The notes: generated by a model from the letters alone, not told the origin. A stretch of 64,000 nucleotides of DNA from Candidatus Fibrimonadales bacterium (GCA_009786285.1 WQTK01000339.1:8061-72060); one strand, 5' to 3'; counted from the stretch's first letter, positions 11,007-63,536 are shown. A program made the numbers and translations.

Positions 11007-11032
11007 TCTCGCCATTTTCTATATTCCCTCAT

Positions 11033-18774: not shown

Positions 18775-18775
18775 A

Positions 18776-32559: not shown

Positions 32560-34395
32560 ATGATTACCGTTAGAAAATTATCGCTATTTTCCGCATCAAT
32601 CGCAGCAATGTTTTCGCTTGCGCTTTCTCAAAATATAATAGGCGTTGTGCCTATCACAGTCAATGTAGACGCACAAGCTGTAGCTTTTGACCCGGATGGG
32701 GAAGCGGCTGGGCAAGTTGTGCTTGCTGCCGGCATTGAGAGTAATTTGCCGGTATATTTGCTTGCTGAAATCACGCCAATCACAAATAAAAGCAAATCCC
32801 GGTTTTTTCTGCCAAACGCAAGCGAAAGCTCTGAAATCAAGCTTGCAGGGCTAAATGGCAAGGTTCTGGGAATCAACAAGTTTGATTTTGACATTCCGGC
32901 AGGAATTTATTTGGTTACAGCAAAGAGCAAAAACAGTGGTTCCTTTGTTCAAAAATTTTATCATAAAGGCGGGAATTTAAGCATTTCCGCAAATAATGCC
33001 GGTACGCAAATACTAAAAAAAACAGGGGATCAATATTCCATAAAAATATCGCCAAATGACCAAAAAAAATATCGTGATACCATTGTTTTTACGACAATCA
33101 ATGAGGGTGTTAACCCAGCTATAAACATTGTGTTTACGAGCATTTCCCTGTGCGCAGGCAAGAATAACGCAACTCAAATATGCGACGAGCGAGATGGTAA
33201 TACATACAAAATTGTCACCATAGGCTCATATACTTGGATGGCGAAGAATTTGAATTACAATGCTTCAGATAGTTATTGCCACAACGTGAATGATGCGAAC
33301 TGCGTGAAATACGGGCGTTTATACAACTGGCCCACGGCTATGAACCTTGCTGCCACTTGCAGAACCAATTCTTGCGTTGCCCAAGTGCAATCCAATCATA
33401 AAGGCATTTGCCCTGAAGGGTGGCATATTCCCAGTGACGCTGAATTGACGGCATTGACAAATTATGTAGGTACTACGCCAGGAACCAAGCTGAAGGCAAC
33501 GAGTGGCTGGAAAGCTCATGCAACTTACGGAAACGGTACGGATGACTATGGTTTTTCGGCCTTGCCTGGTGGTTACGGCTTTTTTGATGGCAGTTCTATC
33601 AAATTCTACAATATCGACAGCTCCGGCAATTGGTGGAGTAGCTCCGAGAATGGTGCAACTGTCGCCTCTTATCGAAGCATGAATTACGACCGCAATACTG
33701 TATATAGTGATAACCGCAACAAGTCCTACCTGTACTCCGTGCGTTGTTTGCAAGATTATGAGACTGTTGAACCTTCTTCCAGCAGCGCAGCTTTAAGCAG
33801 CAGTTCATACAAAACGGTTGTTATAGGCACTCAAACCTGGATGGCAGAGAATTTGAATTACGACGTCCCAAATAATACAACAGATGTTTGTTACGGTGAT
33901 AAATCAAGCAATTGCAATAAATACGGGCGTTTATATGACTGGGTCACAGCTATGGATCTTCCTTCTCATTGCGAATCCGGTACCTGCAAAGATATTATAA
34001 CAGCCAAGTGGCGAGGTATTTGCCCATCTGGGTGGCACATTCCCAGCGATGCGGAATGGACAACATTGATAAATTATGTAGGCAGTTCACCGGGAAAGAA
34101 ATTAAAAACGACTAGCGGCTGGAATTTCAGCGAATACGACGGGCACTTTGACGGCAACGGCACGAACGATTACAGTTTTTCGGCTCTACCGGGCGGTTCT
34201 TGTGATAACAACAACGTTTGCATTCTTGAGGGCAGCAGCGGCTACTGGTGGACCAGTTCAGAATATAGTGCTACCGGTGCCTATTTTCGACATATGTATT
34301 ATTCCTATACCAGCGTGGAAGGCAACGGCAATGTTGACGGAGGGTCTGACGGCAAAATTTCCAGCAAGTTCTCCGTGCGTTGCGTGAAAGATTAA
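32560..34395 (+). CDS. secreted protein with two FISUMP (Fibrobacter succinogenes major paralogous) domains
   Basis: A signal peptide. The pattern WMAxNLNY...YGRLYxW..A...CPxGWHIPSDAEW...LPGG...VRC occurs twice. Confidence 0.8.
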   Translation: MITVRKLSLFSASIAAMFSLALSQNIIGVVPITVNVDAQAVAFDPDGEAAGQVVLAAGIESNLPVYLLAEITPITNKSKSRFFLPNASESSEIKLAGLNGKVLGINKFDFDIPAGIYLVTAKSKNSGSFVQKFYHKGGNLSISANNAGTQILKKTGDQYSIKISPNDQKKYRDTIVFTTINEGVNPAINIVFTSISLCAGKNNATQICDERDGNTYKIVTIGSYTWMAKNLNYNASDSYCHNVNDANCVKYGRLYNWPTAMNLAATCRTNSCVAQVQSNHKGICPEGWHIPSDAELTALTNYVGTTPGTKLKATSGWKAHATYGNGTDDYGFSALPGGYGFFDGSSIKFYNIDSSGNWWSSSENGATVASYRSMNYDRNTVYSDNRNKSYLYSVRCLQDYETVEPSSSSAALSSSSYKTVVIGTQTWMAENLNYDVPNNTTDVCYGDKSSNCNKYGRLYDWVTAMDLPSHCESGTCKDIITAKWRGICPSGWHIPSDAEWTTLINYVGSSPGKKLKTTSGWNFSEYDGHFDGNGTNDYSFSALPGGSCDNNNVCILEGSSGYWWTSSEYSATGAYFRHMYYSYTSVEGNGNVDGGSDGKISSKFSVRCVKD

Positions 34396-49005: not shown

Positions 49006-49186
49006 TTTAGAAAATTTAAAAACACAGGAGATGTGTTTGCTCGCAGTGAAAAGAGGTTATTGAGAAGTTGATATATTTGAAGAAGAGTTGCATTTGGTCA
49101 TATATAAAATACACAAACCTTTTGTCCATGATGAGAAAAATCAGGATAGAATGGGAATATGCAGTGGATTGATATTTAGCAAAATA

Positions 49187-49207
49187 GCGACAATGGCTGG
49201 CGTTGTG
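49187..49207 (+). promoter_or_regulatory. operator-like motif, copy A: GCGACAATGGCTGGCGTTGTG, 6 nt upstream of TATATT (49214-49219)
   Basis: Identical to copy B and 19/21 to copy C. It has the quasi-palindrome CGACA-N5-TGGCG. Confidence 0.6.
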
Positions 49208-49250
49208 GCTTTGTATATTCCTCTTTAACATCAACAAGTGAGGTGAAAAG

Positions 49251-49343
49251 ATGGCTAAAGTAGTGAAAATTGAAGATGGCTCTATCACAGTTATGAACGA
49301 ACTGCTTGGTGAGTCGGCTTATAGCATAAAAAATATTTTCTAA
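49251..49343 (+). CDS. possible 30-aa small ORF (MAKVVKIEDGSITVMNELLGESAYSIKNIF)
   Basis: It is preceded by the same leader and GAGGTGA Shine-Dalgarno as the gene at 52795. There is no homology evidence. Confidence 0.3.
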   Translation: MAKVVKIEDGSITVMNELLGESAYSIKNIF

Positions 49344-49369
49344 AATTAACATTTTTCTATTTTCCGTCC

Positions 49370-50254
49370 ATGGAACAAACCCAAAAAGAGAATAAAGGCG
49401 AAATAGTGCTGTATCAAGCTGAAGATATGGTAAAATTGGATGTATTGCTTGAAAATGAAACTGTTTGGTTAACACAGGCGCAAATGGGACAATTGTTTGA
49501 AAAAAGCAGAAATACAATAACCGAGCATATACAAAATGTTTTCAAGGAAGGCGAATTACAAGAAGAAATGGTATGTCGGGATTTCCGACATACCACTCAA
49601 CACGGAGCAATAGAAGGCAAAACGCAAGTAGCAACAACAAAATATTACAATTTAGATGTTATTATTTCAGTAGGTTATCGAGTTAAGTCAAAAAAAGGCA
49701 CTCAGTTTAGGATTTGGGCTACCCAAGTGTTAAAGAATTACCTGCTTAAAGGATATGCCATTCGTCAACAAATAGAAAGCATAAAAAAGATATCCAATAA
49801 TCACGAGAGTCGTTTAATTGAAGTCGAAAAGAAAATTGATGTTTTCATAAAAACATCCGCTATGCCCTTAGAAGGAATTTTCTATGATGGGCAAATTTTT
49901 GATGCTTATACGTTTGTCTGCAATTTGGTAAAATCAGCGAAAAAGAGTATTATTCTCATTGATAATTGGGTAGATGAAAGCGTTTTGACTTTACTATCCA
50001 AAAGAAAAGACAAAGTATCGACTGAAATCTACACGCCAAAAATATCACAACAATTTCAATTAGATATTACAAAACATAATTCACAATATCCGCCAATTAA
50101 TGTGAAGATTTACCAAAAGGCGCATGATAGATTTCTGCTGATTGATGAGAATACTTATCACATAGGGGCATCAATTAAAGATTTGGGGAAAAAGTTGTTT
50201 GCATTTTCAAAGATGCAGATAAAAGCTAGTGACTTGCTTGAATCACTCCACTAG
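49370..50254 (+). CDS. RhuM-family (virulence-associated / ORF6N-type DNA-binding) protein
   Basis: IVLYQAEDM..LDVLLENETVWLTQAQMGQLF...YNLDVIISVGYRVKSKKGTQFRIWAT, and C-terminal HDRFLLIDENTYHIGASIKDLGKK. Confidence 0.7.
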   Translation: MEQTQKENKGEIVLYQAEDMVKLDVLLENETVWLTQAQMGQLFEKSRNTITEHIQNVFKEGELQEEMVCRDFRHTTQHGAIEGKTQVATTKYYNLDVIISVGYRVKSKKGTQFRIWATQVLKNYLLKGYAIRQQIESIKKISNNHESRLIEVEKKIDVFIKTSAMPLEGIFYDGQIFDAYTFVCNLVKSAKKSIILIDNWVDESVLTLLSKRKDKVSTEIYTPKISQQFQLDITKHNSQYPPINVKIYQKAHDRFLLIDENTYHIGASIKDLGKKLFAFSKMQIKASDLLESLH

Positions 50255-50370
50255 CTACCGCCCCTAAAATTATACAATAATCAAATAACCGTTAAATAAG
50301 AATTAAGTGCCTAAAAACAGCCTAAGCAAGCCATTACCGTTACCAAAAATAGGATTTTCTTGTGAAAATA

Positions 50371-50391
50371 GCGACAATGGCTGGCGTTGTG
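50371..50391 (+). promoter_or_regulatory. operator-like motif, copy B: GCGACAATGGCTGGCGTTGTG, 6 nt upstream of TATATT (50398-50403); the ATG lies 7 nt after the box
   Basis: The 27-nt stretch AAAATAGCGACAATGGCTGGCGTTGTG is identical to copy A. Confidence 0.6.
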
Positions 50392-50410
50392 AAATTTTAT
50401 ATTAATAGAT

Positions 50411-52711
50411 ATGTCTGGTAAATGGGATAATCCGAGTGTTCCTAACAGCGGTTGGGAATGTGTTGACGTTCAAGATTTGGGCGAGCCGATTATGACTTGC
50501 CAAATGTGTGAACGGGAAATAATTCGCTATGCGCATTATATGCAGCATCCGGCTTATAGATATGGATTGACAGTTGGCTGTATATGCGCTGGAAAAATGG
50601 AAGGCGATATGCAAAGCGCTAAAGAACGCGACGCATTTATGAAAAGCCGGATGAACAAAAGAAAAAACTGGCTTGAAAGAAAATGGAAAATATCCAAAAA
50701 CGGAAACCAATATGTAAAATCAGATGGTTTTCTTGTTGTTATGAAACAGAAAGACGGACTATGGAGTGCTTTTGTGAAAAGCGAAAGCGGAGATTTTGAA
50801 AAATGGAGCTCACGAAAAAATGTAAATGAAAACGAAATGAAACTGGCCGCCTTCGACTGCTTGACAAAAGTTTTAGCCGAAAAACGAAAGCCGTTGCCGC
50901 CGCCACAGCCATTACCATCACCGCCATTACCGTCACCGCCAGTATTGCAAATGCAAGCGCCGCCGTCACAGCCACAGCCAAAAATAAAGGAAGCTAAAAA
51001 CGATTCGGTTAATTTCACAAGCGAACAGAATAATATTTTTGAATTTATAAAAAGCGGAACGGGGCATGGAATAATAGATGCTGTTGCAGGGGCCGGAAAA
51101 ACCACAACAATAATGGAATGCGCAAAATATGTTGAAGATAAAACCAATGTTCTTTTCTGTGCGTTTAATAAGAGCATACAAAGCGAAATAGCAAACAAAT
51201 TCAGCAAACGGGGGCTAAATCAGGTAACTGTGAAAACCATTCATGCATTGGGTTTTCAAATATTAAAAGACAATAACAGCAGCAGCAAAAAATTCGTTGC
51301 GCAAGATTCAAAATACTGGACTATTCTGAACAAAGATGTAGAAATGCACAGGGAAATTCAAGCTTATATGGAAGAACTTTTGCGCATAAACGACTACGAA
51401 CTAAATGAGATTGAGAGCTACAAGCAATTTGCCGTTAGAGACATAATCCATAAATTCAAAGACCGATTGCTTGATATGAACCAAAAAATCAGGGCAACTT
51501 TAACTCCGTGCGATTTGGAAAAATTTAAGAATCTGGTTGAGCATTTTAATTTCTTTACCGAAGAAGAAATCAAGAAAAAAAAATTTGACAGAGAAATTGA
51601 GATTTATTTTGAGTGTGGCAAAATTTTGCTTTATGCAGGGAATGCTTTGGCAAAAGAGGCTTTGGTTATAGATTACACCGATATGCTTTATTTGCCTTTT
51701 ATTTGGAATTTGAGGGCATCAAGAACATATTCATTTTTGTTTATAGACGAATGCCAGAATTTATCAAAGTCTCAGCTTGCAGTGGTTCTTAAATACGGTC
51801 AAAGAGAGGGCAGGATTTTAGCCGTTGGAGATCCGTATCAGAGCATTTACGGTTTTGCCGGAGCAGACATAGAATCTTTTGACAGAATTAAAAACACCAT
51901 AAGGGCGAATCCTCTTCCTCTAACAACCTGTTTCAGGTGCCCGCCGAATGTTGTATCGCTTGCGGCCAGCATTAGGCGTGATATTTCTGCGAGCAAGCAG
52001 GAGCCGGGGGTAATTGAGGAGATTGCCTTTAAGCAGGTTATAAAGATGGCGAAGATAAATGATTTGATAATTTCTAGGTACAGGGAGCCTATTTTATTTT
52101 TGGTTTTTGAGTTTATAAATAAGAACATACAAGTGCAAATTCACAAGGATGAGGTTAATGACATTATAGATGAGTTGAAGAATTTATTTAAGCAGGAGGA
52201 GCGGGCTGCGATTATTACGGAAATTTCCGGTGGCTTTGAGACCATAAAGGATACCGTTTTCAACAGGTGGCTTTTTATTATTGAACGAGAGGCGAAAAGG
52301 CTGGAAAATTCCAGCGAGAGGCCGGTTTACATTAAGGCGAAAACGGAGTATTTGAATAACAGGCTTGAATTTATGCATAAAAAATATTTGCAGTGGAAAA
52401 ATTCTTGCCAAACGGTAAATGATATGTTGGTAAAAATAAAGGATTATATTTCTGCAACGGATAATTGCATTAAGCTTTCTACGATTCACAGGGCAAAAGG
52501 TTTGGAAGCGAGGCGTGTTTTTATTTTGAATTTCAATGATTTGCCGCATTTTAAACCTAATCAGAAGCCGTGGGAAAGGATTCAGGAGCAAAATTTGAAA
52601 TATGTAGCCATAACTCGGGCGTTGGAAGAGCTTTATTTGGTGAAGAGCGAGAAAATTGATGATATTAAGAAGGAAGCAAGTTTGTTTGATGAGTTTTTGG
52701 TGGATATATAG
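50411..52711 (+). CDS. SF1 UvrD/Rep-like helicase with an N-terminal Cys-rich domain and a Pro-rich linker
   Basis: Walker A AGAGKTTT (about 51086-51109), FIDECQNLS, VGDPYQSIYGFAGA, TCFRCP, STIHRAKGLEA and VAITRA. The N-terminus is W-C...CxxC...GCIC, and the linker is PLPPPQPLPSPPLPSPP. Confidence 0.85.
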   Translation: MSGKWDNPSVPNSGWECVDVQDLGEPIMTCQMCEREIIRYAHYMQHPAYRYGLTVGCICAGKMEGDMQSAKERDAFMKSRMNKRKNWLERKWKISKNGNQYVKSDGFLVVMKQKDGLWSAFVKSESGDFEKWSSRKNVNENEMKLAAFDCLTKVLAEKRKPLPPPQPLPSPPLPSPPVLQMQAPPSQPQPKIKEAKNDSVNFTSEQNNIFEFIKSGTGHGIIDAVAGAGKTTTIMECAKYVEDKTNVLFCAFNKSIQSEIANKFSKRGLNQVTVKTIHALGFQILKDNNSSSKKFVAQDSKYWTILNKDVEMHREIQAYMEELLRINDYELNEIESYKQFAVRDIIHKFKDRLLDMNQKIRATLTPCDLEKFKNLVEHFNFFTEEEIKKKKFDREIEIYFECGKILLYAGNALAKEALVIDYTDMLYLPFIWNLRASRTYSFLFIDECQNLSKSQLAVVLKYGQREGRILAVGDPYQSIYGFAGADIESFDRIKNTIRANPLPLTTCFRCPPNVVSLAASIRRDISASKQEPGVIEEIAFKQVIKMAKINDLIISRYREPILFLVFEFINKNIQVQIHKDEVNDIIDELKNLFKQEERAAIITEISGGFETIKDTVFNRWLFIIEREAKRLENSSERPVYIKAKTEYLNNRLEFMHKKYLQWKNSCQTVNDMLVKIKDYISATDNCIKLSTIHRAKGLEARRVFILNFNDLPHFKPNQKPWERIQEQNLKYVAITRALEELYLVKSEKIDDIKKEASLFDEFLVDI

Positions 52712-52731
52712 ATTTTTTTGGAAAAGAAATT

Positions 52732-52752
52732 GCGACAATGACTGGCGTTGTA
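52732..52752 (+). promoter_or_regulatory. operator-like motif, copy C: GCGACAATGACTGGCGTTGTA, 6 nt upstream of TATATT (52759-52764)
   Basis: 19/21 to copies A and B. The downstream 36-nt leader is nearly identical to that of copy A. Confidence 0.6.
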
Positions 52753-52794
52753 GATTTCTATATTCCTTTTTAACATCAACAAGTGAGGTGAAAA

Positions 52795-53232
52795 ATGTCA
52801 GAAATGAGATGTCAGTTTTGTGGCAAGGAACTGCAAGAGTATGAACTTAGCGGAGGTTCGTATTGTCAAAGCGGACCAGATAATAAGCATCAACCCGCCA
52901 AAGGATCAGGATTAGAAATGAGATGTTGTTTTTGTGGCAAGGAGTTACAAGAATATGAACTTAGCGGAGGTTCGTATTGCCAAAGTGGACCAAATAACAA
53001 GCATCTACTGGTTTTAGTAAATGAAATGAGATGTTGTTTTTGTGGCAAGGAGTTACAAGAGTATGAGCTTAGTGGGGGTTCATATTGCCCAAGTGGGTCT
53101 AACAACAAACATAAGCTAGCTTCAGAGGCTGAAATGAAATGCTGTTTTTGTGGTAAAGAACTGCAGGAGTATGAACTTAGCGGAGGTTCGTATTGCAATG
53201 ATGGGCCGGGGAACAAGCATAGGCTGGCTTGA
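52795..53232 (+). CDS. protein made of four tandem C3H zinc-knuckle-like repeats
   Basis: EMRCCFCGKELQEYELSGGSYCxSGPxNKH occurs four times (CxxC-x14-C-x7-H, counted). Confidence 0.7.
   Translation: MSEMRCQFCGKELQEYELSGGSYCQSGPDNKHQPAKGSGLEMRCCFCGKELQEYELSGGSYCQSGPNNKHLLVLVNEMRCCFCGKELQEYELSGGSYCPSGSNNKHKLASEAEMKCCFCGKELQEYELSGGSYCNDGPGNKHRLA
52801..53229. repeat. in-frame tandem repeat, 4 copies, period 114/108/108 bp
   Basis: The GAAATGAGATG units start at 52801, 52915, 53023 and 53131. Confidence 0.9.
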
Positions 53233-53243
53233 TGAGGTGAAAA

Positions 53244-53819
53244 ATGGCTAAAAAAGCTAAACCTGTAGCAAAGAAAACTCCTGTTAAAATTGCGTCGGCA
53301 AATCCAGCAGCGACTAAAGCTCAACCTGCAACAAGAGAACAATACGAAACATGGAAGAAAGAAAAAGATAAAAAAGTGAATGCCATTTTAGATTCCGCTT
53401 ATCCAAAATTATTATCTCCCGATGTAACTCAGGAAATGCAGGAAATGCTGAATGTTTCCAGTTCTGTTATTGGAAGTTTATCAGCAAAAACACAAGAAAT
53501 CATAGAAGTGTTGGAAAGTTCCTTCTCTATTGTTGGAGGTTTATCGGTAAAGCTAGTTGAAGATTTTTTGAATGGGAAAGATATAAATACAAAGCAATGT
53601 CGCAAGATTTTGAAAATACTTGATGTTTTTGAAGGTTCTAGTAATTTTGATTATTTTGACGAATATGCAGACAAAGGAGTCATAGGAATTAGATGCCATA
53701 GCATAGGTTATCTAATCAGAATTTACATTGTGAATATGGCTATTCGCAAATTAAAACAGGAAAATCCGAAATTAGGTGAGTTGCTTCAAATTTTGGATGA
53801 GTTGGATATAGAGAGATGA
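53244..53819 (+). CDS. hypothetical protein with a Lys/Ala/Pro-rich (histone-H1-like) N-terminal tail
   Basis: MAKKAKPVAKKTPVKIASANPAATKAQPA is followed by a helical domain. It starts 11 nt after the upstream stop and has a GAGGTGA Shine-Dalgarno. Confidence 0.5.
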   Translation: MAKKAKPVAKKTPVKIASANPAATKAQPATREQYETWKKEKDKKVNAILDSAYPKLLSPDVTQEMQEMLNVSSSVIGSLSAKTQEIIEVLESSFSIVGGLSVKLVEDFLNGKDINTKQCRKILKILDVFEGSSNFDYFDEYADKGVIGIRCHSIGYLIRIYIVNMAIRKLKQENPKLGELLQILDELDIER

Positions 53820-53958
53820 GACAATTCTTTGAAAAAAGTAGAACTAAAATCAATAGCTGCTCAACCAAATGCAGGGAAGAAGTCTCCAACTGCGGCTCGA
53901 GTAAAGAAATGAGGCTTTTGAGTTTTGTATATTTGCGTTTAACAAAAAGGAGATAAAA

Positions 53959-56898
53959 ATGTTTTTAAATTCTAAAAAATTCTATGAAGATCTTTGCGAA
54001 AATAATATTCTTGATTACGGCCGTAAGGAAAAACATCTTGAGCATTTTGGAAATCTTTATGCCGATAATACACACTTTATCTATGAACTATTGCAAAATG
54101 CAGAGGATGCAAAAGCGAAGTCTATTCTATTTCAATTATTTGATGACCGTTTAGAGATTTTACATAATGGACAAAAATTCTCCGAGGAGAATGTTAAAGC
54201 AATTACACAAATTGCAGAAAGTGCAGAAAGTGAATATAAAAAAATTGGAAAATTTGGACTTGGTTTTAAATCAGTATATGCAATAACTGATATCCCACAA
54301 ATATATTCTGGAGATTTTCATTTTAATATAGAAAAATACATTCGTCCATCAGAAATACCCAACAGGAAAATTGATGATAAATGGACAACTTTATTTGTCT
54401 TGCCTTTCAAAATAGATAAAAAACAGGAAATTTATGAAAAAATATCAAAAAGACTACAGAATACAAACGTACGCATTTTATTATTTTTAACTTATATTGA
54501 AGAAATGAAATTTAGTATAAAAAACATATGTGATGGCAAGTATTTGAGAAAAAACGAAAATAAAAATGGGTTAAATCAAATTGTTGTTACAAGCCAAGAT
54601 AAATCAGAAAATTTATTTGTATTTGATAAAGAGATTGATAACAAAAAAGTAGAAATAGCATTCTTATATGATGAGAAGGAAAATATAATAAATAAAACAA
54701 TAGATACAGATTTAGTCGTATATTTCCCAACCGCAAAAAAAACTAACCTTGGCTTTCTACTTCACGGAAACTTTAACACAACTCCTGCTCGCGATAATAT
54801 TCTGGAAGATGACAAACATAACAACGCTCTTGTAAAGATGGCTGCGGAATTATTGGTTGAAGCGATGCAGAAAATTAAATCCGCTAATTTGTGTAATATA
54901 TCATTTTTAGAATCCCTCCCCATAATAGCCTCTGATTTTCCAGAGAGTAATATCTTTTATCCATTGTTTAAAATAACAGCAAATACCCTTAAGCATCAAA
55001 ATTATTTGCCTATGTCAATAGGAGGATTTATCTCTGCTGAAAAAGCAATTATCGCAGCTACATCTGACTTAATTGATTTGTATGAACCTGACGGGAAGCA
55101 TTGGTTGTCAAAAGAAATAACCGAAAAATATTTACATTTATATAATTATTTACGACATTCCCTTGGCATTGAATATGTAACACCAGATAAATTTGCAAAT
55201 AGAATTGATGAAAATTTTCTTCACAAACAATCAGATGATTGGTTCATAAAATTTTATATTTTTTTGAACAATGGGCGAAATGCTCTATGGCGCGAAACTC
55301 CTAATCCTGAAGGTGTTCTACGCTCAAAACCTATCCTTCGCCTTGAAGATAATACTTTAAAAACACCAAAAGAAGAAGTTTTTCTTCCGATAGAAAATTC
55401 TGTATCCAATTGTCCAATGATTAAATCTTCAATTGCAACCAATGAAGAAGCTTTAGCTTTTTTAAAAGTATTAGGATTGGACAAGCCTGAACCGATAGAT
55501 GATATTATACAGAGAATTTTTCCAAAATATAAAACTACTCCATACGTATCAGAAGCAGAATACAAAAATGATTTAAACTCAATTCTAACTATATTAAAAG
55601 ACGAAACACAAGATGAAAAAAATAAATTAAAAGGAAGACTACAAAACCTAATGGTTATAAAATGTTCCGATGAAAAATTTAGAAAACCTTCTGATGTTTA
55701 CTGCAATAATGAGAATATGAAAAAATGGTTTAAGTACTCGAGTAACATACACTTTGCAAACAATATATTAAATAATTGTGATTGGAAATTATTCAATGTA
55801 GCCGATTTACCTCGTAAAATACTTCTAAATACTCTTCCTAATGGAGTCCAAAAAGCGTATTTTCCTAGATACAACGCCAAAGAATATAAAATTGAAAATT
55901 ATGACTTGGATGGCTTGAACGATTTCATTATAAACATAAATCCCGATGATTCTCAAATTATCGCGAACGTTATCGTTTCTAAATTTTATGTCGACAGACG
56001 TCTTTTTGATGGAGAGCAGGATTATTCTTATAATGGCCCTAAAAAGTCTTATTTCAAAAATAATATCCATCAAATATTAAATAATTCGAAATGGATTCTT
56101 GGAAATGATGGTAAATTGTATGAACCAAAAGGCATCATAGCAGAAGATATCGCTAAAAATATTGCCGAAAACATAATTAATATTAATTTGCCCTTTGATT
56201 TTAAAAAAAACGAAGAAAAAGAATTAGAAGAAAATTTAGCAACCTTAGGAAAAAAAATTGTTAACTTAGCGGAATATGAAGAATTTCAAAAATGGAAAGA
56301 ATTGAACGATGAAGAAAAGTCGCAAGATTTATATGAAGGTATTTTAGAACCTCAATATTCAATTGATGAAACAACGCCAATCGAAAGGTCAATAGCTCTA
56401 ATGCAAGAAGATAAAGGAATAGGAGGTTCTAGAAAAATCTCTTTTCTAGAACAAACAGTGAATATTCTACCAGATGTGAAAATTAAAACTCCTATTCTAG
56501 ACACTAAAAAAGCTAAAGAAATCGGACAACGTGGCGAAGATATAGTAAAAAAATTTTTGATAGACAATGAAGGATTTAATGAAAATGACATAAACATTCT
56601 TAATAATGAAGAGAATGTCGGAACGGGTCGGGATTTTGAAGTTAAAAAAAATGGCGAAATTATCAAAATTATAGAAGTAAAATCTACAGTCGATCTAGGA
56701 CCAGTTCATACATTTCCTATTTCAGGAAAACAATGGGAAACTGGACGCAGAGAACAAGATAAATTCTGGATTTATGCAGTATTTAACGTATGGAGCAAAG
56801 AGCCTATAGTTGTACGGATTCAAAATCCAATTAAGCAATGGAAATACGGTGATATAGAAGCGCAGCTTGTAAATTTAATTAGTAGGATAAAATCCTAA
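53959..56898 (+). CDS. sacsin-type GHKL ATPase fused to a C-terminal DUF3883-like (restriction-endonuclease-fold) domain
   Basis: YELLQNAEDA (54085-54111) and IGKFGLGFKSVY form the Bergerat-fold N-terminus. The C-terminus is GQRGEDIV...GRDFEV...IEVKST...FWIYAV. Confidence 0.7.
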   Translation: MFLNSKKFYEDLCENNILDYGRKEKHLEHFGNLYADNTHFIYELLQNAEDAKAKSILFQLFDDRLEILHNGQKFSEENVKAITQIAESAESEYKKIGKFGLGFKSVYAITDIPQIYSGDFHFNIEKYIRPSEIPNRKIDDKWTTLFVLPFKIDKKQEIYEKISKRLQNTNVRILLFLTYIEEMKFSIKNICDGKYLRKNENKNGLNQIVVTSQDKSENLFVFDKEIDNKKVEIAFLYDEKENIINKTIDTDLVVYFPTAKKTNLGFLLHGNFNTTPARDNILEDDKHNNALVKMAAELLVEAMQKIKSANLCNISFLESLPIIASDFPESNIFYPLFKITANTLKHQNYLPMSIGGFISAEKAIIAATSDLIDLYEPDGKHWLSKEITEKYLHLYNYLRHSLGIEYVTPDKFANRIDENFLHKQSDDWFIKFYIFLNNGRNALWRETPNPEGVLRSKPILRLEDNTLKTPKEEVFLPIENSVSNCPMIKSSIATNEEALAFLKVLGLDKPEPIDDIIQRIFPKYKTTPYVSEAEYKNDLNSILTILKDETQDEKNKLKGRLQNLMVIKCSDEKFRKPSDVYCNNENMKKWFKYSSNIHFANNILNNCDWKLFNVADLPRKILLNTLPNGVQKAYFPRYNAKEYKIENYDLDGLNDFIININPDDSQIIANVIVSKFYVDRRLFDGEQDYSYNGPKKSYFKNNIHQILNNSKWILGNDGKLYEPKGIIAEDIAKNIAENIININLPFDFKKNEEKELEENLATLGKKIVNLAEYEEFQKWKELNDEEKSQDLYEGILEPQYSIDETTPIERSIALMQEDKGIGGSRKISFLEQTVNILPDVKIKTPILDTKKAKEIGQRGEDIVKKFLIDNEGFNENDINILNNEENVGTGRDFEVKKNGEIIKIIEVKSTVDLGPVHTFPISGKQWETGRREQDKFWIYAVFNVWSKEPIVVRIQNPIKQWKYGDIEAQLVNLISRIKS

Positions 56899-56936
56899 TA
56901 ATATTTTGATCAAGCATTTTTTAACCATTAAAAATC

Positions 56937-56957
56937 ACGACACCCACTGTCGCAACG
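56937..56957 (+). promoter_or_regulatory. operator-like motif, copy D (diverged): ACGACACCCACTGTCGCAACG, containing the perfect inverted repeat CGACA-N5-TGTCG; 6 nt upstream of TACATT (56964-56969)
   Basis: It has the same AAAAT prefix, the same spacing to the -10-like box and the same 7-nt distance from box to ATG as copy B. Confidence 0.5.
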
Positions 56958-56976
56958 CATTTGTACATTATAAATC

Positions 56977-57531
56977 ATGAACCAATGCACCAAATGCAAC
57001 CGCTCGCTAAAACCCGCCGCAAAGTTCTGCTCCGCTTGCGGCACGGCTGTACAACCCACCCCACAATGCGCAAAATGCGGAACTTATTGCGAAAAAGACG
57101 CTAAATTCTGCTCAGAATGCGGAAGCGTTGTTGGAGTAGATGCAGCTTTGTTTGGAGAATTTGTTGATGACAGAGACGGCACACGATACAGAACCGTGAA
57201 AATAGATGGCAAAATCTGGATGGCAGAAAACTTGAACTACGATGGAAAAAGCGTCTATGACTGGGCTAACGCCCGGAACGCTTGCCCAGACGGATGGCAC
57301 CTACCCAGCTTTAGAGAATGGTACGAACTCCTGAACTCTAACTGCGAAAACAGCGAATTTTACAGGATTTTCGGCATTGGCAAACACGACCACTGGTGGT
57401 GCGCAGAAGAAGATAGCAAAGAAAGAAGCCTCTCGTGGCACATATCGCATAATAATGGCTTTTTTTACAACAATTCACACAAATTATGCCTATTTGAAGT
57501 TCGGTGCGTGAAAGGAGGTGCCCATGATTGA
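56977..57531 (+). CDS. double zinc-ribbon plus truncated FISUMP-domain protein, with no signal peptide or TM segment
   Basis: CTKCN..FCSACG and CAKCG..FCSECG, followed by FVDDRDGTRYRTVKIDGKIWMAENLNY...CPDGWHLPSFREW...VRC. Confidence 0.7.
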   Translation: MNQCTKCNRSLKPAAKFCSACGTAVQPTPQCAKCGTYCEKDAKFCSECGSVVGVDAALFGEFVDDRDGTRYRTVKIDGKIWMAENLNYDGKSVYDWANARNACPDGWHLPSFREWYELLNSNCENSEFYRIFGIGKHDHWWCAEEDSKERSLSWHISHNNGFFYNNSHKLCLFEVRCVKGGAHD

Positions 57532-59701
57532 CTTTTCAGTTTTTTTCGCAAAACATGACGATTTCATTTTACGATATAGCGGCGGTTTTGAACTGGATTA
57601 TTATATATGCAGATATTTGCTGACAATACAAAATAATAAAAAACATTTTGCAATGGATGAGCATTTTTATGGAAGATTTTTATATTTTCTCGGAACAAAC
57701 TACTTAGAAGTTGCAATTAATTATGCAAAACGACGTTATAACAAAATCCCCCCAGAAGCTACAGATGTAAAAAAAGAAAGTAAATTATTCTTAAATTGGA
57801 AATCATTATACGAACTTCTGGATTTTCAAGAATGGAATTCAATGCTGACATTTTTGCTAAGGTTAGTCGCTCGCAAAAAACAAAAATTGGAAATTCTTGA
57901 AAAACGATTGGATTTAATATGCAAAACACTTAATCTATGCAAAATAAATAAAGAACTTCTATGCTTTCTATATTTATGGGATTACAATAACTCCATAATT
58001 TATTTGCTAGATGAGGTTAGCAGAGCCATAAATGCAAACTCAGGCAAAATAAGTTACGCCGCAATTGGCCTGCTCGCAAATTATTCCGAAGAAACCGTTT
58101 TGGATGCGCTTTCCAAAGAACGTGGACTGATAAATTTAAATATTTTAAACAGTTCCGAAAAAGGAGGTTTTGGCATTCCAATTGAAATAAGAAAATATTT
58201 AAAAGGACTTGGCTCCGATAATTTCATGGGTATATATGCTGCAAACGACAGCAAACCTGCTTTGCCCATTGAAAAATTTGATTGCCAAAAAGAAGCAAAA
58301 TTTATAATAGATTTGATATCCATGCACAAAAACGAAAAGCCTCTGCATATTTTGTTCTACGGAACGGAAGGCACGGGAAAAACAGAACTCGCAAGGGCAA
58401 TAGCCGCAAATACAAATTGCTCACTCTTGGATATCGGGCGAGGAATTAAAAAACAAGTGCTTGACACGGATGAAGATATTACAAATGCATTGACAAAATT
58501 TCGCATAAGAGCGCTGACAATTACAGAAACTGCACTGAAAAACAAAAGCAATGTTATTCTGCTCATTGATGAAGCAGATAATTTGCTAAACTTCTTTGAA
58601 AAGGGCACTCTGAATCAAATAATGGAAGATATGCGAGTTCCTGTAATCTGGATTAGCAATAATCTGTTTTTTGTTAAAAAATCAAGTTTGCGCCGTTTTA
58701 ATTTCAGCATAAAATTCAAAGACAACAGCGAAAGCATGAGACTCAAAATTTGGGAAAGCGTGGTGGAAAAACATCAGGCTGGCGAGCTTTTCACAACCGA
58801 ACGCATAAAAACTCTGGCTAACAAATACAATGCAAACCCAGGCGGAATAGAACTTGCGGTTTCCAGCGAAATGCAGTTCGCAAAAAACGGCAAACAGGAA
58901 CAAGTAGCAGAACTTGTGCTGAAACAACATCTGGAACTCTTATGCACGCAAAGCAATTATAAAAACACGCAAAGCAAAGCTCCAAAATATGACGAAAACG
59001 TTTTGAATGTACATGGAATGGAAAATGCCCTGCATGCCGCAAAATGCTACGCCGAGTGCCTGAAAAACAAAGAAACGGAAAGCAATTGCACCATGCTCTT
59101 GTATGGCCCTCCAGGAACAGGCAAAACGGAATTCGCAAAGCATTTGGCAAGAATAAGCGAGCTGCCTTTCAAGGAGATAAGTTACAGCAAAATATCTTCT
59201 TGCTATGTTGGCCAAACGGAAAAGCAATTGGCAGCGGCATTTGAAGAAGCATCCAAAGAAGGCTCGCTGCTCTTTATAGACGAGGCAGACAGCCTGATTT
59301 CCGACCGAAGAAACGCAAATCAATCATGGGAAACCACGCAGGTAAATGAATTTCTGGTTCAATTGGAAAACAGCAAATGCCTTGTTGTTTGCTCAACGAA
59401 TTTCCAAGGCAAATTGGACGCTGCAAGCAATCGCAGATTTCATTTTCATTTGAGATTTGATTATCTTAAAAAAGATGGGATTTTTAAAATGGCGCAAAAC
59501 TTTTTCCCGGAATTTGAAGACGAAGCCTGGAACGAGCTTTGCAGCTTGGAATGCCTGACTCCCGGCGATTTTTACGCTGTATATAAGCGCTTGCAGTGGT
59601 TGCCGAAAAATGAACTCTCTGCTTCGCAGGTTACAAAGGAGCTAAGCGAAGTTGCCCTTGCAAAGGAGCCTTATGGAAACAGGCGCATTGGATTTTTCTA
59701 A
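57518..59701 (+). CDS. tandem AAA+ ATPase with an N-terminal domain of about 270 aa of unknown function
   Basis: AAA-1: GTEGTGKT (58361-58384) and LLIDEAD. AAA-2: GPPGTGKT (59105-59128), LLFIDEADSL and SNRRF (arginine-finger region). Confidence 0.8.
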   Translation: MPMIDFSVFFAKHDDFILRYSGGFELDYYICRYLLTIQNNKKHFAMDEHFYGRFLYFLGTNYLEVAINYAKRRYNKIPPEATDVKKESKLFLNWKSLYELLDFQEWNSMLTFLLRLVARKKQKLEILEKRLDLICKTLNLCKINKELLCFLYLWDYNNSIIYLLDEVSRAINANSGKISYAAIGLLANYSEETVLDALSKERGLINLNILNSSEKGGFGIPIEIRKYLKGLGSDNFMGIYAANDSKPALPIEKFDCQKEAKFIIDLISMHKNEKPLHILFYGTEGTGKTELARAIAANTNCSLLDIGRGIKKQVLDTDEDITNALTKFRIRALTITETALKNKSNVILLIDEADNLLNFFEKGTLNQIMEDMRVPVIWISNNLFFVKKSSLRRFNFSIKFKDNSESMRLKIWESVVEKHQAGELFTTERIKTLANKYNANPGGIELAVSSEMQFAKNGKQEQVAELVLKQHLELLCTQSNYKNTQSKAPKYDENVLNVHGMENALHAAKCYAECLKNKETESNCTMLLYGPPGTGKTEFAKHLARISELPFKEISYSKISSCYVGQTEKQLAAAFEEASKEGSLLFIDEADSLISDRRNANQSWETTQVNEFLVQLENSKCLVVCSTNFQGKLDAASNRRFHFHLRFDYLKKDGIFKMAQNFFPEFEDEAWNELCSLECLTPGDFYAVYKRLQWLPKNELSASQVTKELSEVALAKEPYGNRRIGFF

Positions 59702-59711
59702 ATTCTCCCTT

Positions 59712-60764
59712 ATGCGCTCAACGGACTCTTTAAAATGGCAGAGGATGCTCACTGCATACCAGTTTTTCATTCAGAAAAAAGGCAAGCAACAGACTGTTAA
59801 GGATGTTGAATTTTTCCTGAAAAGCACGGGCATAGAAGTTTGCACCCGAGATGTTCAGCGAGATTTGATGGAATTGAAAAACAACGGCGTTTTGGAAAAT
59901 GTCGGGAAGGGCAAGAATCTGAGATACAAAATACCCGCTATGCACGCCATAGACTTTTATAGCGATTTATACGAAAATGATATTTTTTCTTTTTTGCTCG
60001 TATCCAGAATCCTGTTTTGGATGTTTGGCGAAAACATAAGCATTGAATCTTTGGAAAAAGCTATTTCAGAGAGCTCTCGAAAACAAATTGGGCTTCATGG
60101 AAAAGATTTGTATGAGCATCTGTCTGCAAAAATGAGCGGCTTGCTTGAATATGTCGGTGAGCAGAGTGCAAAGAGCGGAAAACCTAAATTTCTGCCAATC
60201 GTTATAAAAGGATTGCTGGAGCTGAGAAAATTGGAAGTTGAATATATAGGCGCCGCAAATGAATTTCCTAAGAAAATAACTTTGGAACCTTGGGCTTTGA
60301 TTGTGTATAAATCAGCTTTGTATATTTTGAGCCCGGACAAATCAATAAAATCCAAATGGAAAACTTTCAAACTGTCTCGCTTTCAAAACGTTAAAATTTT
60401 GAGCGAAGTTTTTGAAAAGGAATCCGGCATTCTAAAGAAAGAGCTTGACCGAATGAAATTCAGCGGAACAATTTGGGACGCAAAAAACAGCCTTGAAGAA
60501 AAATCTGTTTTGATAAAACTTAAGTTTAGCTGGTACGACCGCTTGCTTTTGCAGGAAAATTTATTTTTGAACAATATGAAAATAATCGAGCATAAAAACG
60601 CAGATAAAAACAAGGCTTGGATAGAAGTTCACATGAAAAGCCCCATAAACAAAGACTTGCTGGCTTGGATTCGTTCTTGGGGTTATGACGCAAAAGTTAT
60701 TGCGCCCCAAGAATTGAAAGATGAAATGGTCAATTATGGAAAATGGCTATTACTTCACAATTAG
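59712..60764 (+). CDS. WYL-domain transcriptional regulator (HTH, WYL and WCX architecture)
   Basis: N-terminal HTH (TVKDVEFFLKSTGIEVCTRDVQRDLMELK). A WYL-like core (LEVEYIG...ITLEPWALIVYKSALYIL...WKTFKLSRFQNVKIL). C-terminal LLAWIRSWGYDAKVIAPQELK. Confidence 0.75.
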   Translation: MRSTDSLKWQRMLTAYQFFIQKKGKQQTVKDVEFFLKSTGIEVCTRDVQRDLMELKNNGVLENVGKGKNLRYKIPAMHAIDFYSDLYENDIFSFLLVSRILFWMFGENISIESLEKAISESSRKQIGLHGKDLYEHLSAKMSGLLEYVGEQSAKSGKPKFLPIVIKGLLELRKLEVEYIGAANEFPKKITLEPWALIVYKSALYILSPDKSIKSKWKTFKLSRFQNVKILSEVFEKESGILKKELDRMKFSGTIWDAKNSLEEKSVLIKLKFSWYDRLLLQENLFLNNMKIIEHKNADKNKAWIEVHMKSPINKDLLAWIRSWGYDAKVIAPQELKDEMVNYGKWLLLHN

Positions 60765-60789: not shown

Positions 60790-61176
60790 TTATTTCCAAA
60801 AGCCTTTACAGTCTTCGTCTTTTACCGGGCGGTTGTTTATGTAGCATTGCCATGCCCATTTGTCATCTGCTTGCTTGAACTTTGACCAGCCGTGATACTC
60901 GCATTTATTGTTCAGTTTCATCACGGCTACCAGCTTTCTCTCAAACCATTCCCTTTCTTCGCCTCGGTCGTACATTGGTTTTCTTCTGATATAATTTGTC
61001 CATACCCGTTCTTTGCCATAACAAAAATTATTCACATAGTTTTCCCGGCAAATTAAAAATCCGGTTTCCAATTCCATGCATTTTTCATAGCTTTTCCCTT
61101 TTGCATACCATTCACCGGCAAAAACGCTTGCGGCAAGGATTGTTGCCAAAACAACGGCAGTTCTAATAATTGTCAA
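60790..61176 (-). CDS. small secreted Trp/Cys-rich protein, hypothetical
   Basis: The TTG start overlaps the TGA stop of the upstream AAA+ gene (TTGA). It has a signal-like TIIRTAVVLATILAASVFA and 6 Cys in the mature part. Confidence 0.4.
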   Translation of the reverse strand: MTIIRTAVVLATILAASVFAGEWYAKGKSYEKCMELETGFLICRENYVNNFCYGKERVWTNYIRRKPMYDRGEEREWFERKLVAVMKLNNKCEYHGWSKFKQADDKWAWQCYINNRPVKDEDCKGFWK

Positions 61177-63536
61177 AACCCAATCTTCCTGCTGCCGTAA
61201 GGCTCTTTCGCAGCCACCATTCCTTCCAGCTCCTGAATAACCCGTTTTGCGGTAAGCTCGTCTTTGGGCAGCCACTGCAACCTCTTGTACACGGCATAAA
61301 AATCACCCGGAGCCACCGCATCCATCTCGGCTATCTTTTCCCAGTTTTCATCAAAAAAATCAGGGAAAAAGTTTTCTGCCATTTTCAAAATTCCTTCCCT
61401 TTTCAAAAAACCGAAATGCAAATGAAAATGAAATCTGCGATTGCTGGCAATGTCCAAATGCCCCTGAAAATTTGTTGAGCACACAACCATGCACTTCGCG
61501 CTCTCCAGTTGCACCAAAAACTCGTTTGTCTGCGTAACTTCCCAGCTTCTAACTGCGCCCTTGCGATCTGCTATCAAACTGTCGGCCTCGTCAATAAACA
61601 GCAATTCCCCGGATTCGTTAGCCTGCTTAAAAGCTGCCGCAAGCTGTTTCTCCGTTTCGCCAACCCACATGGATGAAATTTGCCCATAGCTTATTTCCCG
61701 GAAAGAAAGCCCGCATTCCCTGGCCAGGAATTTTGCGAATTCCGTTTTGCCGGTTCCCGGAGGGCCGTAGAGAAGCATGGTCATGTTGCCTTCGGAATGC
61801 TTGCTTTTAAGCTGCTCCGAATAACACTTCGCAGAGTGCAAAACTTCGTTTAAATTGGGAATGTTCAGCACGGAGACATCGTATTTCGGAGCGCGGCTGA
61901 CTGTATGCTTGTTTGTTTTCAGACCCATAAGCTCAACGTGGTTTTCCAAAATTTCTTCGCCTATTTCCTTGTGCATCCCGCTTTCCATAAGAGCCACCTC
62001 GTTCTGCACCGCAAGTTCTATTCCGCCTGTGGAAATTTCGTATTTCTCCGCAAGTTTTTTTCTGCGCTCAGGCGAAAATATCTGCTCTGCCTTGTGCTTT
62101 TCAACAACGCTGTCCCAGAGTTTTTTGCGAATATTCTGGTTGCCCAAATCAAAGCTTACGCTGTATTGAAATCTGCGCATTGTTGAGCGCTCAATATTGT
62201 TTATGTTGTTTGTTATCCAAATCACAGGCAGTTTCAAATTTTCCAGAAACCTGTTTAAAATGCCCTTTTCAAAGCCGTTCAAAATCAAGTCAGCTTCGTC
62301 TGCCACCAGCAAAACATCTTTTTCCCTGAGGCAAATTTCAGAAATTTTCAAAGCTCTCACTCTATAAGATATAACGCCTTCCTTGTGCGTTTGCTTGCCG
62401 AAAATTCCCTGGTTGTTTTTGAATTCCGCGCCTATTTCATAGAGCGTTTTGCCGGTTTCCGCAGCTATGGAACGTGCAAGCTCGCTTTTTCCGGTGCCTT
62501 CCATTCCATAGAATAAAAAATTGAGCGAGCGATTGTTTTTATAGCTTTTAATCAAGTCGCAAATCAAAGAGGCTTCTTTCACGCAGTCAAAACGCTCAAC
62601 AGGCAATGCTTTTTTGCTGTCTATTCTTGCGTAATTTTCCAAAAAATTTCCTGAGCCAATTCCGCTTAAAAAATTCTTGACATCCGGCGGCAAATCTCCG
62701 TCTTCGTCAAGAATGCCCAGTTCTATCAGGCCCCTGGGTTTTGAGAGGGAATTCATAATAGAGTCTCTGGAGTGCCCGGTTAAAATGGAAATCACACGGT
62801 CAAGAAAATTGCTTGAGCTGTGCCTGCCCTTGAATGTTTCCATAACGCAGTCGCTAAGGTCATCCATCAGAGAGTCTTTGGATGTGGCAAAAGTCAAAGT
62901 CAAAACATCTTGGGAAACTCTGTCCAAATCCAAAGTTTCGCTTAAAATGCCGAGTCTTTCCTCAAATACATCGCTAAAATACAGAAGCTTGGCCTTGATT
63001 TGCATATCAAGAGCGTACTTGAGCATCTCCAAAAACAGAAAATTCACATCAAACGGATTTTTTACTTCGCTTAGCCAAAATTTGGAATTTAACAATTCGT
63101 TTATCATCAGCCACGACGCAAGAAAATCCGGCGCATGAAGCGCTTTGCCGAGTTTTGTCTCAAACTGGTTCCTGCTCTTCGATTGTTCCGAGTTGTTTTT
63201 CAAGTGATTTCCCGTTATCTCAATGACTCGGTTCAAGCCGTCTGTGCCGAGAAAATCTATGATTTCAACATAATGCTCGTCTCTCAAGCTAAAATCGTAA
63301 TGAGTTTTGTGCATAGAGAGCAGGTACTCAAAATATTTCGCGCATTTGCTTTCCCGCAAAGCCTTTGTGGGGCTGGAATAGCGGGTATAGCTACGCTCGT
63401 CGCTATCTTCCAAAAACCTAGCGAAATTCATTTTCCGAACTTTTTTTCTAATCACACCAGCCATTTCCTCATTTCTCTTCTTTATTATAGTTAAAAACAG
63501 CTTTAAATTTAGAAAATTTCCACTTCCAAACTCCAT
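61173..63536 (-). CDS. tandem AAA+ ATPase, paralog of 57518..59701 (alternative starts at 63464 and 63431)
   Basis: It has the same architecture and long collinear identity, for example MLLYGPPGTGKTEFAK...ELLFIDEADSLI...VVCSTNFQG...SNRRFHFHL...APGDFYAVYKRLQWLPK. Confidence 0.8.
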   Translation of the reverse strand: MEFGSGNFLNLKLFLTIIKKRNEEMAGVIRKKVRKMNFARFLEDSDERSYTRYSSPTKALRESKCAKYFEYLLSMHKTHYDFSLRDEHYVEIIDFLGTDGLNRVIEITGNHLKNNSEQSKSRNQFETKLGKALHAPDFLASWLMINELLNSKFWLSEVKNPFDVNFLFLEMLKYALDMQIKAKLLYFSDVFEERLGILSETLDLDRVSQDVLTLTFATSKDSLMDDLSDCVMETFKGRHSSSNFLDRVISILTGHSRDSIMNSLSKPRGLIELGILDEDGDLPPDVKNFLSGIGSGNFLENYARIDSKKALPVERFDCVKEASLICDLIKSYKNNRSLNFLFYGMEGTGKSELARSIAAETGKTLYEIGAEFKNNQGIFGKQTHKEGVISYRVRALKISEICLREKDVLLVADEADLILNGFEKGILNRFLENLKLPVIWITNNINNIERSTMRRFQYSVSFDLGNQNIRKKLWDSVVEKHKAEQIFSPERRKKLAEKYEISTGGIELAVQNEVALMESGMHKEIGEEILENHVELMGLKTNKHTVSRAPKYDVSVLNIPNLNEVLHSAKCYSEQLKSKHSEGNMTMLLYGPPGTGKTEFAKFLARECGLSFREISYGQISSMWVGETEKQLAAAFKQANESGELLFIDEADSLIADRKGAVRSWEVTQTNEFLVQLESAKCMVVCSTNFQGHLDIASNRRFHFHLHFGFLKREGILKMAENFFPDFFDENWEKIAEMDAVAPGDFYAVYKRLQWLPKDELTAKRVIQELEGMVAAKEPYGSRKIGF

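Follow-up and report, generated by a model that had tools for sequence, protein, structure and literature searches.

Which protein reads the inverted repeat that stands in front of four transcription units of a bacterial defence island, and does it switch the island on or hold it silent? We addressed this question in a 64,000-nucleotide stretch of DNA from Candidatus Fibrimonadales bacterium (GCA_009786285.1 WQTK01000339.1:8061-72060; hereafter the window, numbered from its first letter), in which boxes of the form CGACA-N5-TGKCG precede a RhuM unit, a helicase gene, a Tiamat-like unit and an operon of zinc-ribbon, AAA+ and WYL regulator genes. A first-pass annotation of the window had proposed that the neighbouring WYL protein (59712-60764) binds these boxes and occludes the promoters, as the repressors CapW and BrxR do. 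We infer that this protein is very probably the one that binds them. Regarding the sign, we assign a probability of roughly 0.5 to the reading that the island boxes are of the DriD/DdaA type and are bound by the island's own WYL regulator, acting as an activator.

A box at a fixed distance from the -10 element

Direct reading of the sequence confirmed four copies, all on the plus strand (Table 1). Copies A and B (GCGACAATGGCTGGCGTTGTG, 49187-49207 and 50371-50391) are identical including their AAAATA prefix, copy C (52732-52752) is the same 21-mer with two mismatches, and copy D is a diverged version (ACGACACCCACTGTCGCAACG, 56937-56957) with a perfect dyad, CGACA-N5-TGTCG. As described in the first-pass annotation, the 21-mer ends 6 nt before a TATATT (A to C) or TACATT (D) hexamer in four out of four cases, and 11 nt (N11) separate the right half-site from the hexamer at every site. 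The pattern CGACANNNNNTGKCG has four sites in 64 kb (five matches if both strands of D are counted), compared to 0.03 expected from shuffled sequences. With a position weight matrix (PWM) built from nine unique variants, the four sites reached 26-28 bits. No other match in the window exceeded 16.8 bits, which is no better than shuffled sequence (up to 17.3 bits), indicating that the motif is confined to 49-57 kb, and no box was found by PWM ahead of any gene elsewhere in the window.

Copies A and C lie inside a duplicated promoter-plus-leader module of 68 nt (91% identical), the shared leader of which, TTTAACATCAACAAGTGAGGTGAAAA, reaches the start codon. Copies A to C thus share a common origin, and independent evidence must be sought in copy D and in other genomes. 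A relaxed box followed by TAnn[AT]T occurs 15 times in 140 kb of lineage DNA, each time with N11 and each time fitting CGXC-N7-GXCG. These instances comprise nine unique sequences; with the boxes of the related loci L034 and L036 (discussed below) included, there are five diverged types. Position 13 is G, T or A and position 3 is A in every instance, giving CGACA-N5-[T/C]G[G/T/A]CG as the overall motif of the lineage. A scan of 185,579 species genomes (source genome not among them) with GCGACAATGRCTGGCGTTGT returned six chance matches in unrelated taxa, and a metagenome scan returned 19 matches, four of them real and all four located at one orthologous junction.

Other interpretations of the element were discarded. 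A sigma-54 promoter (TGGC...) and GCGACA as a -35 element with a 21-nt spacer were both dismissed on inspection; as to a terminator, the sole candidate is the minus strand of copy D, at which no gene of that strand ends. Neither an Rfam nor a tRNA scan of the window gave any match.

The boxes precede promoters of the lineage's general type

The sequence (A/T)TTTTC-TAnnTT, with an ATG 6-9 nt further on, stands before about 30 genes of the window and of related loci, and no -35 element is conserved among these promoters. Evidently, it represents the lineage's housekeeping promoter, with mRNAs that are predicted to be mostly leaderless. Examples lie at 11017-11022 before the ATG at 11033, before 22827, before 42823 and at 59699-59704, as well as upstream of the minus-strand starts 48345 and 48996. 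Because they match this general promoter, the TAYATT hexamers behind the boxes can be taken as genuine -10 elements, and the proposal of a real dyad at fixed spacing upstream of four transcription units is upheld. Promoters B and D match the general type exactly (hexamer, 7 nt, ATG), and promoters A and C carry a conserved Shine-Dalgarno leader between -10 and ATG. No -35 element was found at the box promoters, either by eye or with a sigma-70 scan, which does not detect these promoters and showed no enrichment of hits (52 found, 42 expected). On a PWM of the extended -10 element, six out of seven box promoters, with a weak upstream T-tract, scored 2.8-6.4 bits, compared to 10-19.7 bits for general promoters. 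As far as sequence can tell, the analysis also documents a promoter type for this uncultured termite-gut Fibrobacterota lineage, consisting of a T-tract, TAnnTT and a presumed leaderless start.

Two genes inside the units own box-less promoters of the general type, namely the RhuM gene (49370) and the WYL gene (59712). The latter promoter is of the leaderless type (TAAATT, 7 nt, ATG) and is kept in the WYL homologues of the related loci L001, L002, L003, L028, L031 and L032. This promoter also fixes the start codon at 59712, in agreement with the earlier annotation.

The leader itself recurs at other genes. Equipped with a strong Shine-Dalgarno sequence, TTTAACATCAACAAGTGAGGT precedes unrelated cassette genes at 49224-49244 and 52769-52789 and, in relatives, at L003 221 and 1831, L004 1081, L017 139 and 784, L027 144, and L028 10522(-) and 7231(-). 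That it occurs sometimes with and sometimes without a box suggests that the promoter modules are mosaic and recombine with one another.

The box and its register match WYL activators

Judged by its sequence, the window motif is the same box as that of two described WYL activators. DriD of Caulobacter binds ATACGAC(X)7GTCGTAT. In its consensus, XC1G2X3C4(X)7G12X13C14G15X, positions G2, C4, G12 and C14 are conserved and X3 and X13 variable; R37 and R41 of DriD read G2/C4/G12/C14, E40 touches C1, and the site at didA is ATACGTCCGTTTCTGGCGCA (PMC10853764). DdaA of Acinetobacter, which activates DNA-damage and anti-phage genes, uses the box CGWCA-N5-TGWCG; its site at aciT is CGACAATATGTGTCG, and binding needs R47 and R51 (PMC12392091, PMC13010146). 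The conserved positions of the window boxes are exactly those contacted by DriD.

The register agrees as well. DriD boxes are positionally conserved and lie over a missing -35 element. Reading the -10 elements ourselves from the sequences printed in PMC13004042, we obtained TGGCG-N11-CAAGGT for the didA promoter and TGTCG-N11-CAATCT for the driD promoter, in the latter of which TTGACA had been engineered 17 bp upstream of the CAATCT hexamer (PMC13004042). Similarly, the PafBC motif tGTCgg-N10-tAnnnT (PMC8635444) equals N11 after TGTCG.

Box and regulator occur together in relatives

Box and WYL family co-occur in relatives with WYL proteins of 93%, 67%, 66%, 34% and 29% identity to that of the window. 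Loci L030-L033 were left out of this comparison, being too short or without upstream promoters. L002 (67%) has two boxes of the form CGACAYCCACCGTCG-N11-TATCTT plus one decayed copy and is devoid of the AAA+ and zinc-ribbon/Fib_succ_major genes. Behind its decayed box (CCACACCCACCCTCA...TATCTT, 1490-1590) comes the 5' end of the WYL gene in a truncated copy, and no gene lies behind its second intact box, at 6012; both look like remnants of island rearrangements. In L034 and L035 (34%), CGACACTTTTCGTCG-N11-TATCTT is followed after 6 nt by the ATG of the WYL gene, so that here the regulator's own promoter carries the box.

The most distant relatives, L036-L038 (29%), belong to a different organism with 45% GC and adjoin Gabija. 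A perfect palindrome, CGACATTTATTGTCG, separates the double-AAA+ gene from the WYL gene, the two being divergently oriented; in the direction of the AAA+ gene N11 is followed by TATATT, and in the direction of the WYL gene N11 is followed by TATGTT. The AAA+ partner in L036 (5474-7753) is homologous to window 57518-59701 (32% identity, E 7e-88), which suggests a conserved module of WYL and AAA+ genes. What all these types have kept is the box core, the length of N11 and the -10 element, while spacer and flanks have diverged, arguing for function and against mere duplication.

The regulator resembles DriD in its predicted fold

Pfam assigns WYL and WCX domains to the product of 59712-60764. An AlphaFold2 model from a 40-sequence alignment (predicted local distance difference test, pLDDT, 85), which superseded a poor first model from 11 sequences (pLDDT 61), comprises a winged helix-turn-helix domain (wHTH, 4-73), a linker helix (76-79), three helices (88-141), a WYL domain (161-233) and a WCX domain (238-349), that is, the five-part architecture of DriD. 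In Foldseek searches, DriD took the top seven places (2.2e-13), followed by PafBC (1.5e-10), BrxR (4.8e-7) and CapW (1.5e-6); PafB/C was also the top sequence match in the PDB.

The recognition helix T45-R46-D-V-Q49-R50-D falls into the predicted helix 45-57. R46, Q49 and R50 are invariant in 11 homologues; in the set of 40, R50 is invariant and R46 is the consensus residue. Going by the residue pattern and the predicted helix, these residues appear to parallel R37/E40/R41 of DriD, R46/R50 of PafB and R47/R51 of DdaA. A search of 1.84 billion representatives yielded only 159 homologues at E<=1e-3. The sources of WYL homologues are termite-gut metagenomes, namely Fibrobacterota of the Fibromonadaceae type. 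No contig contained an exact match to the window WYL protein, searched from two candidate starts.

Activation, repression and other readings

In the mechanism that we favour, a homodimer of the wHTH/three-helix-bundle/WYL/WCX protein would bind the boxes (C-G-x-C, 7 nt, G-x-C-G), with R46 and R50 of the recognition helix reading the conserved G and C of each half-site. A basal amount of regulator would be supplied from the WYL gene's own box-less promoter. Upon binding of a signal by the WYL domain, which by analogy may be single-stranded DNA (ssDNA) arising from DNA damage or phage attack, the regulator would occupy the boxes and help RNA polymerase to start, thus activating the RhuM unit, the helicase, the Tiamat-like unit and the zinc-ribbon/AAA+/WYL operon. 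As promoter D would drive the latter, positive feedback could result. The first-pass annotation had noted that the placing of copy D fits autoregulation, which is plausible, with the restriction that the WYL gene also has its conserved box-less promoter. Binding, ligand and sign of regulation are all inferred.

We favour an activator because of the box identity, the N11 register, the DriD-like architecture, the R-x-x-Q-R helix, the fold ranking and the weak T-tracts. With the exception of the T-tracts, the same features, including the three-helix bundle, match DriD, DdaA and PafBC, so promoter occlusion in the manner of CapW and BrxR is not the best fit. Nevertheless, the same protein could act through the same sites with the opposite sign, a WYL dimer at about -39 to -25 blocking RNA polymerase in unstressed cells until ligand binding releases it, as for CapW and BrxR, which we regard as less probable. 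Several observations weigh on this side. BrxR and CapW, the WYL regulators hitherto linked to dedicated defence loci, act as repressors, and the targets here are likewise defence genes, some of which, in BrxR- and CapW-controlled systems, are toxic when over-expressed. BrxR(Acin) binds from -51 to -27, overlapping a -35 element, so the position of a box alone does not decide the sign. Similarly, the missing -35 alone is no proof of activator dependence, because the ordinary, self-sufficient promoters of this genome, which the box promoters resemble in their core, also have none. With 15.1 bits on the PWM for the general extended -10 element, promoter C counts as a strong core, and the same -10 element and leader exist without a box at L003 1831, L004 1081 and L017 784. 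Three further points limit the activator reading: the DdaA box is situated about 50 bp upstream of the start of transcription, showing that the register varies within the activator class; L036 offers an alternative plus-strand -10 element, TATAAT, at N6; and a profile search of the PDB with the wHTH alone retrieved no WYL protein, DriD included. A repressor is disfavoured, in turn, by the exact N11, which persists in relatives with as little as 29% protein identity and on either side of a divergent promoter, because a steric block would not need it, and by the weak T-tracts of six out of seven box promoters. With either sign, the outline would be the same, in that a signal sensed by the WYL domain, probably ssDNA by analogy, induces the island, with basal regulator coming from the box-less WYL promoter and feedback from promoter D.

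All readings other than these two are, even taken together, improbable. An unlinked, genome-wide regulator similar to DriD or DdaA might read the boxes, leaving the island WYL protein a role, for example, as a sensor or as a partner of the AAA+ protein. DdaA boxes indeed precede many defence systems scattered through Acinetobacter genomes, and in the window the proximal promoter of the WYL gene is box-less. However, the box travels with a narrow WYL clade in every informative relative, including L002 with its missing AAA+ and zinc-ribbon genes, the number of homologues is small (159, see above), and the box stands in the WYL gene's own promoter region in L034 and L036. Furthermore, no other DNA-binding protein was found in the island, and the recC-recB-recD-sbcD-sbcC genes within the window have no box. 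We therefore consider an unlinked regulator highly improbable. Finally, the motif might be non-regulatory and kept only via recent duplication or recombination of the promoter-plus-leader module, in line with the near-identity of copies A to C and their leader and with the mosaic arrangement of modules between strains. Such an origin is hardly credible for A-, D-, L002-, L034- and L036-type sites, which share only box core, N11 and -10 element, have diverged in spacer and flanks, and conserve precisely the positions that DriD contacts.

The island and its surroundings

The window encodes several defence-type genes (PDC-S05, a GajB-like helicase, and TmtA-like and IetA-like proteins; Table 1). 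In related contigs, the left junction and the zinc-ribbon/AAA+/WYL operon are kept and the cassettes between them differ, which marks the locus as a variable defence hotspot. Cassettes in relatives include GmrSD variants, PDC-M13B, PDC-S26 and a PDC-S09 nucleotidyltransferase, and Gabija is also present in relatives.

Table 1. Boxes, promoter elements and genes of the island (positions in the window)
Feature	Position	Strand	Remarks
Box A	49188..49202	+	CGACAATGGCTGGCG (CGXC-N7-GXCG)
-10 hexamer TATATT, promoter A	49214..49219	+	11 nt past box
Conserved leader	49224..49251	+	TTTAACATCAACAAGTGAGGTGAAAAG, with Shine-Dalgarno; common to promoter C and L003, L004, L017, L027, L028 cassettes
Small ORF, 30 aa	49252..49344	+	first of unit A; read directly
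Box-less general -10 TATTTT	49358..49363	+	catttttcTATTTT, 6 nt, ATG; directly 5' of RhuM gene
RhuM-family protein	49370..50254	+	PADLOC candidate defence gene PDC-S05
Box B	50372..50386	+	same sequence as box A
-10 hexamer TATATT, promoter B	50398..50403	+	7 nt to ATG; leaderless mRNA predicted
UvrD-type (GajB-like) helicase, 766 aa	50411..52711	+	unit B
Box C	52733..52747	+	CGACAATGACTGGCG
-10 hexamer TATATT, promoter C	52759..52764	+	conserved leader after it at 52769-52794
Unit C	52795..56898	+	zinc-ribbon-repeat protein, 191-aa ORF, 46-aa ORF, HATPase/NOV_C protein
Four-zinc-ribbon-repeat protein	52795-53232	+	unit C
HATPase/sacsin + NOV_C protein, 979 aa	53959-56898	+	resembles Tiamat TmtA
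Box D	56938..56952	+	CGACACCCACTGTCG; perfect dyad
-10 hexamer TACATT, promoter D	56964..56969	+	7 nt to ATG; leaderless mRNA predicted
Double zinc-ribbon + Fib_succ_major protein, 184 aa	56977..57531	+	unit D
Double-AAA+ protein, IetA-like, 727 aa	57518..59701	+	unit D
Box-less -10 TAAATT	59699..59704	+	7 nt before WYL start codon
WYL-WCX regulator, 350 aa	59712..60764	+	proposed box binder

The left junction (49065-49186) is orthologous to the starts of contigs L003, L028, L017 and L027. It holds the 3' end of a gene (...NMQWLDI*) and has a 55-bp deletion in the window; each of the four metagenome contigs breaks off no more than about 185 nt upstream. Inside the RhuM gene, on the opposite strand (49566-49598, minus), a hairpin with a 14-bp stem was flagged as terminator-like, with a poor T-run. 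The first gene of unit C is built from four 108-nt (36-aa) zinc-ribbon repeats in tandem (CxxC...C, 75-81% identical), and boxes of L002 and L017 are followed by shorter versions of it (71 aa and 105 aa, respectively). In unit D, the stretch 57186-57242 of the zinc-ribbon protein is related to the Fib_succ_major repeats of ORF 32560-34395, in which repeated segments of this type lie at 33200-34200. A second double-AAA+ (IetA-like) gene at 61173-63536 (minus strand) is 46% identical to its paralogue at 57518-59701, and the two flank the WYL gene. The recC, recB, recD, sbcD and sbcC genes form one plus-strand cluster (11033-22796, G+C 0.32-0.35) behind a leaderless promoter of the general type.

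Implications

The box, the regulator class and a WYL activator wired to defence systems (DdaA, 2025) are already published. New are the phylum, a regulator that sits within a dedicated and highly variable defence island, a promoter module that recurs there in several copies, and a conserved neighbour of the double-AAA+ type. Should the CGXC-N7-GXCG box and its N11 register hold here, they would extend from Alpha- and Gammaproteobacteria to Fibrobacterota, with Actinobacteria sharing the half-site only, suggesting an ancient and very conservative protein-DNA-polymerase geometry in WYL activators. Defence islands might then be activator-switched, not repressor-held, which would change models of inducible immunity and its cost.

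A more far-reaching idea, which we offer tentatively and think rather unlikely to hold in full, is that the unit of about 70 nt formed by box, N11, -10 element and leader is a plug-in module that wires hotspot cassettes to one ssDNA-sensing, DriD-class activator, its copies doubling as homology anchors. If so, strains would swap defence cassettes by means of these repeated copies, the island regulator would be the first DriD-class activator dedicated to a defence island, no such regulator having been described in Fibrobacterota, and the conserved double-AAA+ partner could belong to the sensing or effector machinery. With four promoters, one regulator, natural box-less controls and half-site variants at the third position, the locus represents a compact, testable case.

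Comparison with known systems

The closest likeness is to DriD of Caulobacter crescentus, a homodimeric WYL activator of an SOS-independent DNA-damage response. The two share the box core CGXC-N7-GXCG, down to the right half-site TGGCG of didA, which equals that of copies A to C, and the placement over a missing -35 element at a fixed N11 from the -10 element (N11 by our own reading of the printed promoters). They also share the order wHTH, linker, three-helix bundle, WYL, then WCX, DriD being the best structural match (E 2.2e-13), and, going by residue pattern and predicted helix, two recognition-helix arginines four residues apart, in the context R-x-x-E-R in DriD and R-x-x-Q-R here. In contrast, sequence identity is only about 15%, the hosts belong to Alphaproteobacteria and Fibrobacterota, respectively, and the targets here are defence cassettes instead of didA, recA and bapE. 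Regulons of the DriD/DdaA type take in DNA-damage-response genes such as recA, ssb and uvrA; in the window, boxes are confined to 49-57 kb. Moreover, the window boxes do not retain the outer ATA/TAT flanks seen in DriD sites, and the window regulator's own proximal promoter is box-less. DriD senses ssDNA and activates; by analogy, the window protein may do both.

DdaA of Acinetobacter and other Moraxellaceae uses the same box (CGWCA-N5-TGWCG), has the R47/R51 pair and the three-helix bundle, and directly controls defence systems (CRISPR-Cas, restriction-modification, Zorya). Unlike the regulator encoded inside the present island, it is a genome-wide regulator that replaced SOS, and its box lies some 50 bp upstream of the start of transcription and not at N11 from the -10 element. 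PafBC of Actinobacteria, which acts by sigma adaptation at a -26 element, resembles the island in half-site and spacing (tGTCgg-N10-tAnnnT, compared to TGTCGC-N10-TACATT in copy D), in promoters without -35, in the pair R46/R50, which in PafBC reads G and C, and as second-best structure and best PDB sequence match. It differs in being a heterodimer or fusion at a single, non-palindromic site, whereas the island has one WYL gene and two-fold symmetric sites. SiwR of Mycobacterium smegmatis likewise activates as a WYL homodimer, its imperfect palindrome lies between the positions of -35 and -10, and its essential -26 region may be counted as a further likeness; its GGA-triplet motif and dinB-like target genes set it apart.

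BrxR and CapW, repressors of BREX and CBASS loci, share with the window protein that they are encoded in defence loci or islands, together with phage-defence genes, and bind inverted repeats in promoters, and more than one island promoter is under the control of BrxR(Efer). They are shorter, however (about 290 aa), with a helix-beta-hairpin dimerisation element between wHTH and WYL domain, where the 350-aa window protein has three helices. They read DNA via an SRQQ (BrxR) or S/Q/S (CapW) motif instead of a T-R-D-V-Q-R-D recognition helix, and their Foldseek E-values are about a million-fold weaker than that of DriD. Their operators differ in sequence and position, those of CapW overlapping the -10 element, those of BrxR(Efer) lying downstream of it and that of BrxR(Acin) at -51 to -27. 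The window box, in comparison, ends 11 nt short of the -10 element without overlap and covers the -35 region, as the BrxR(Acin) site does.

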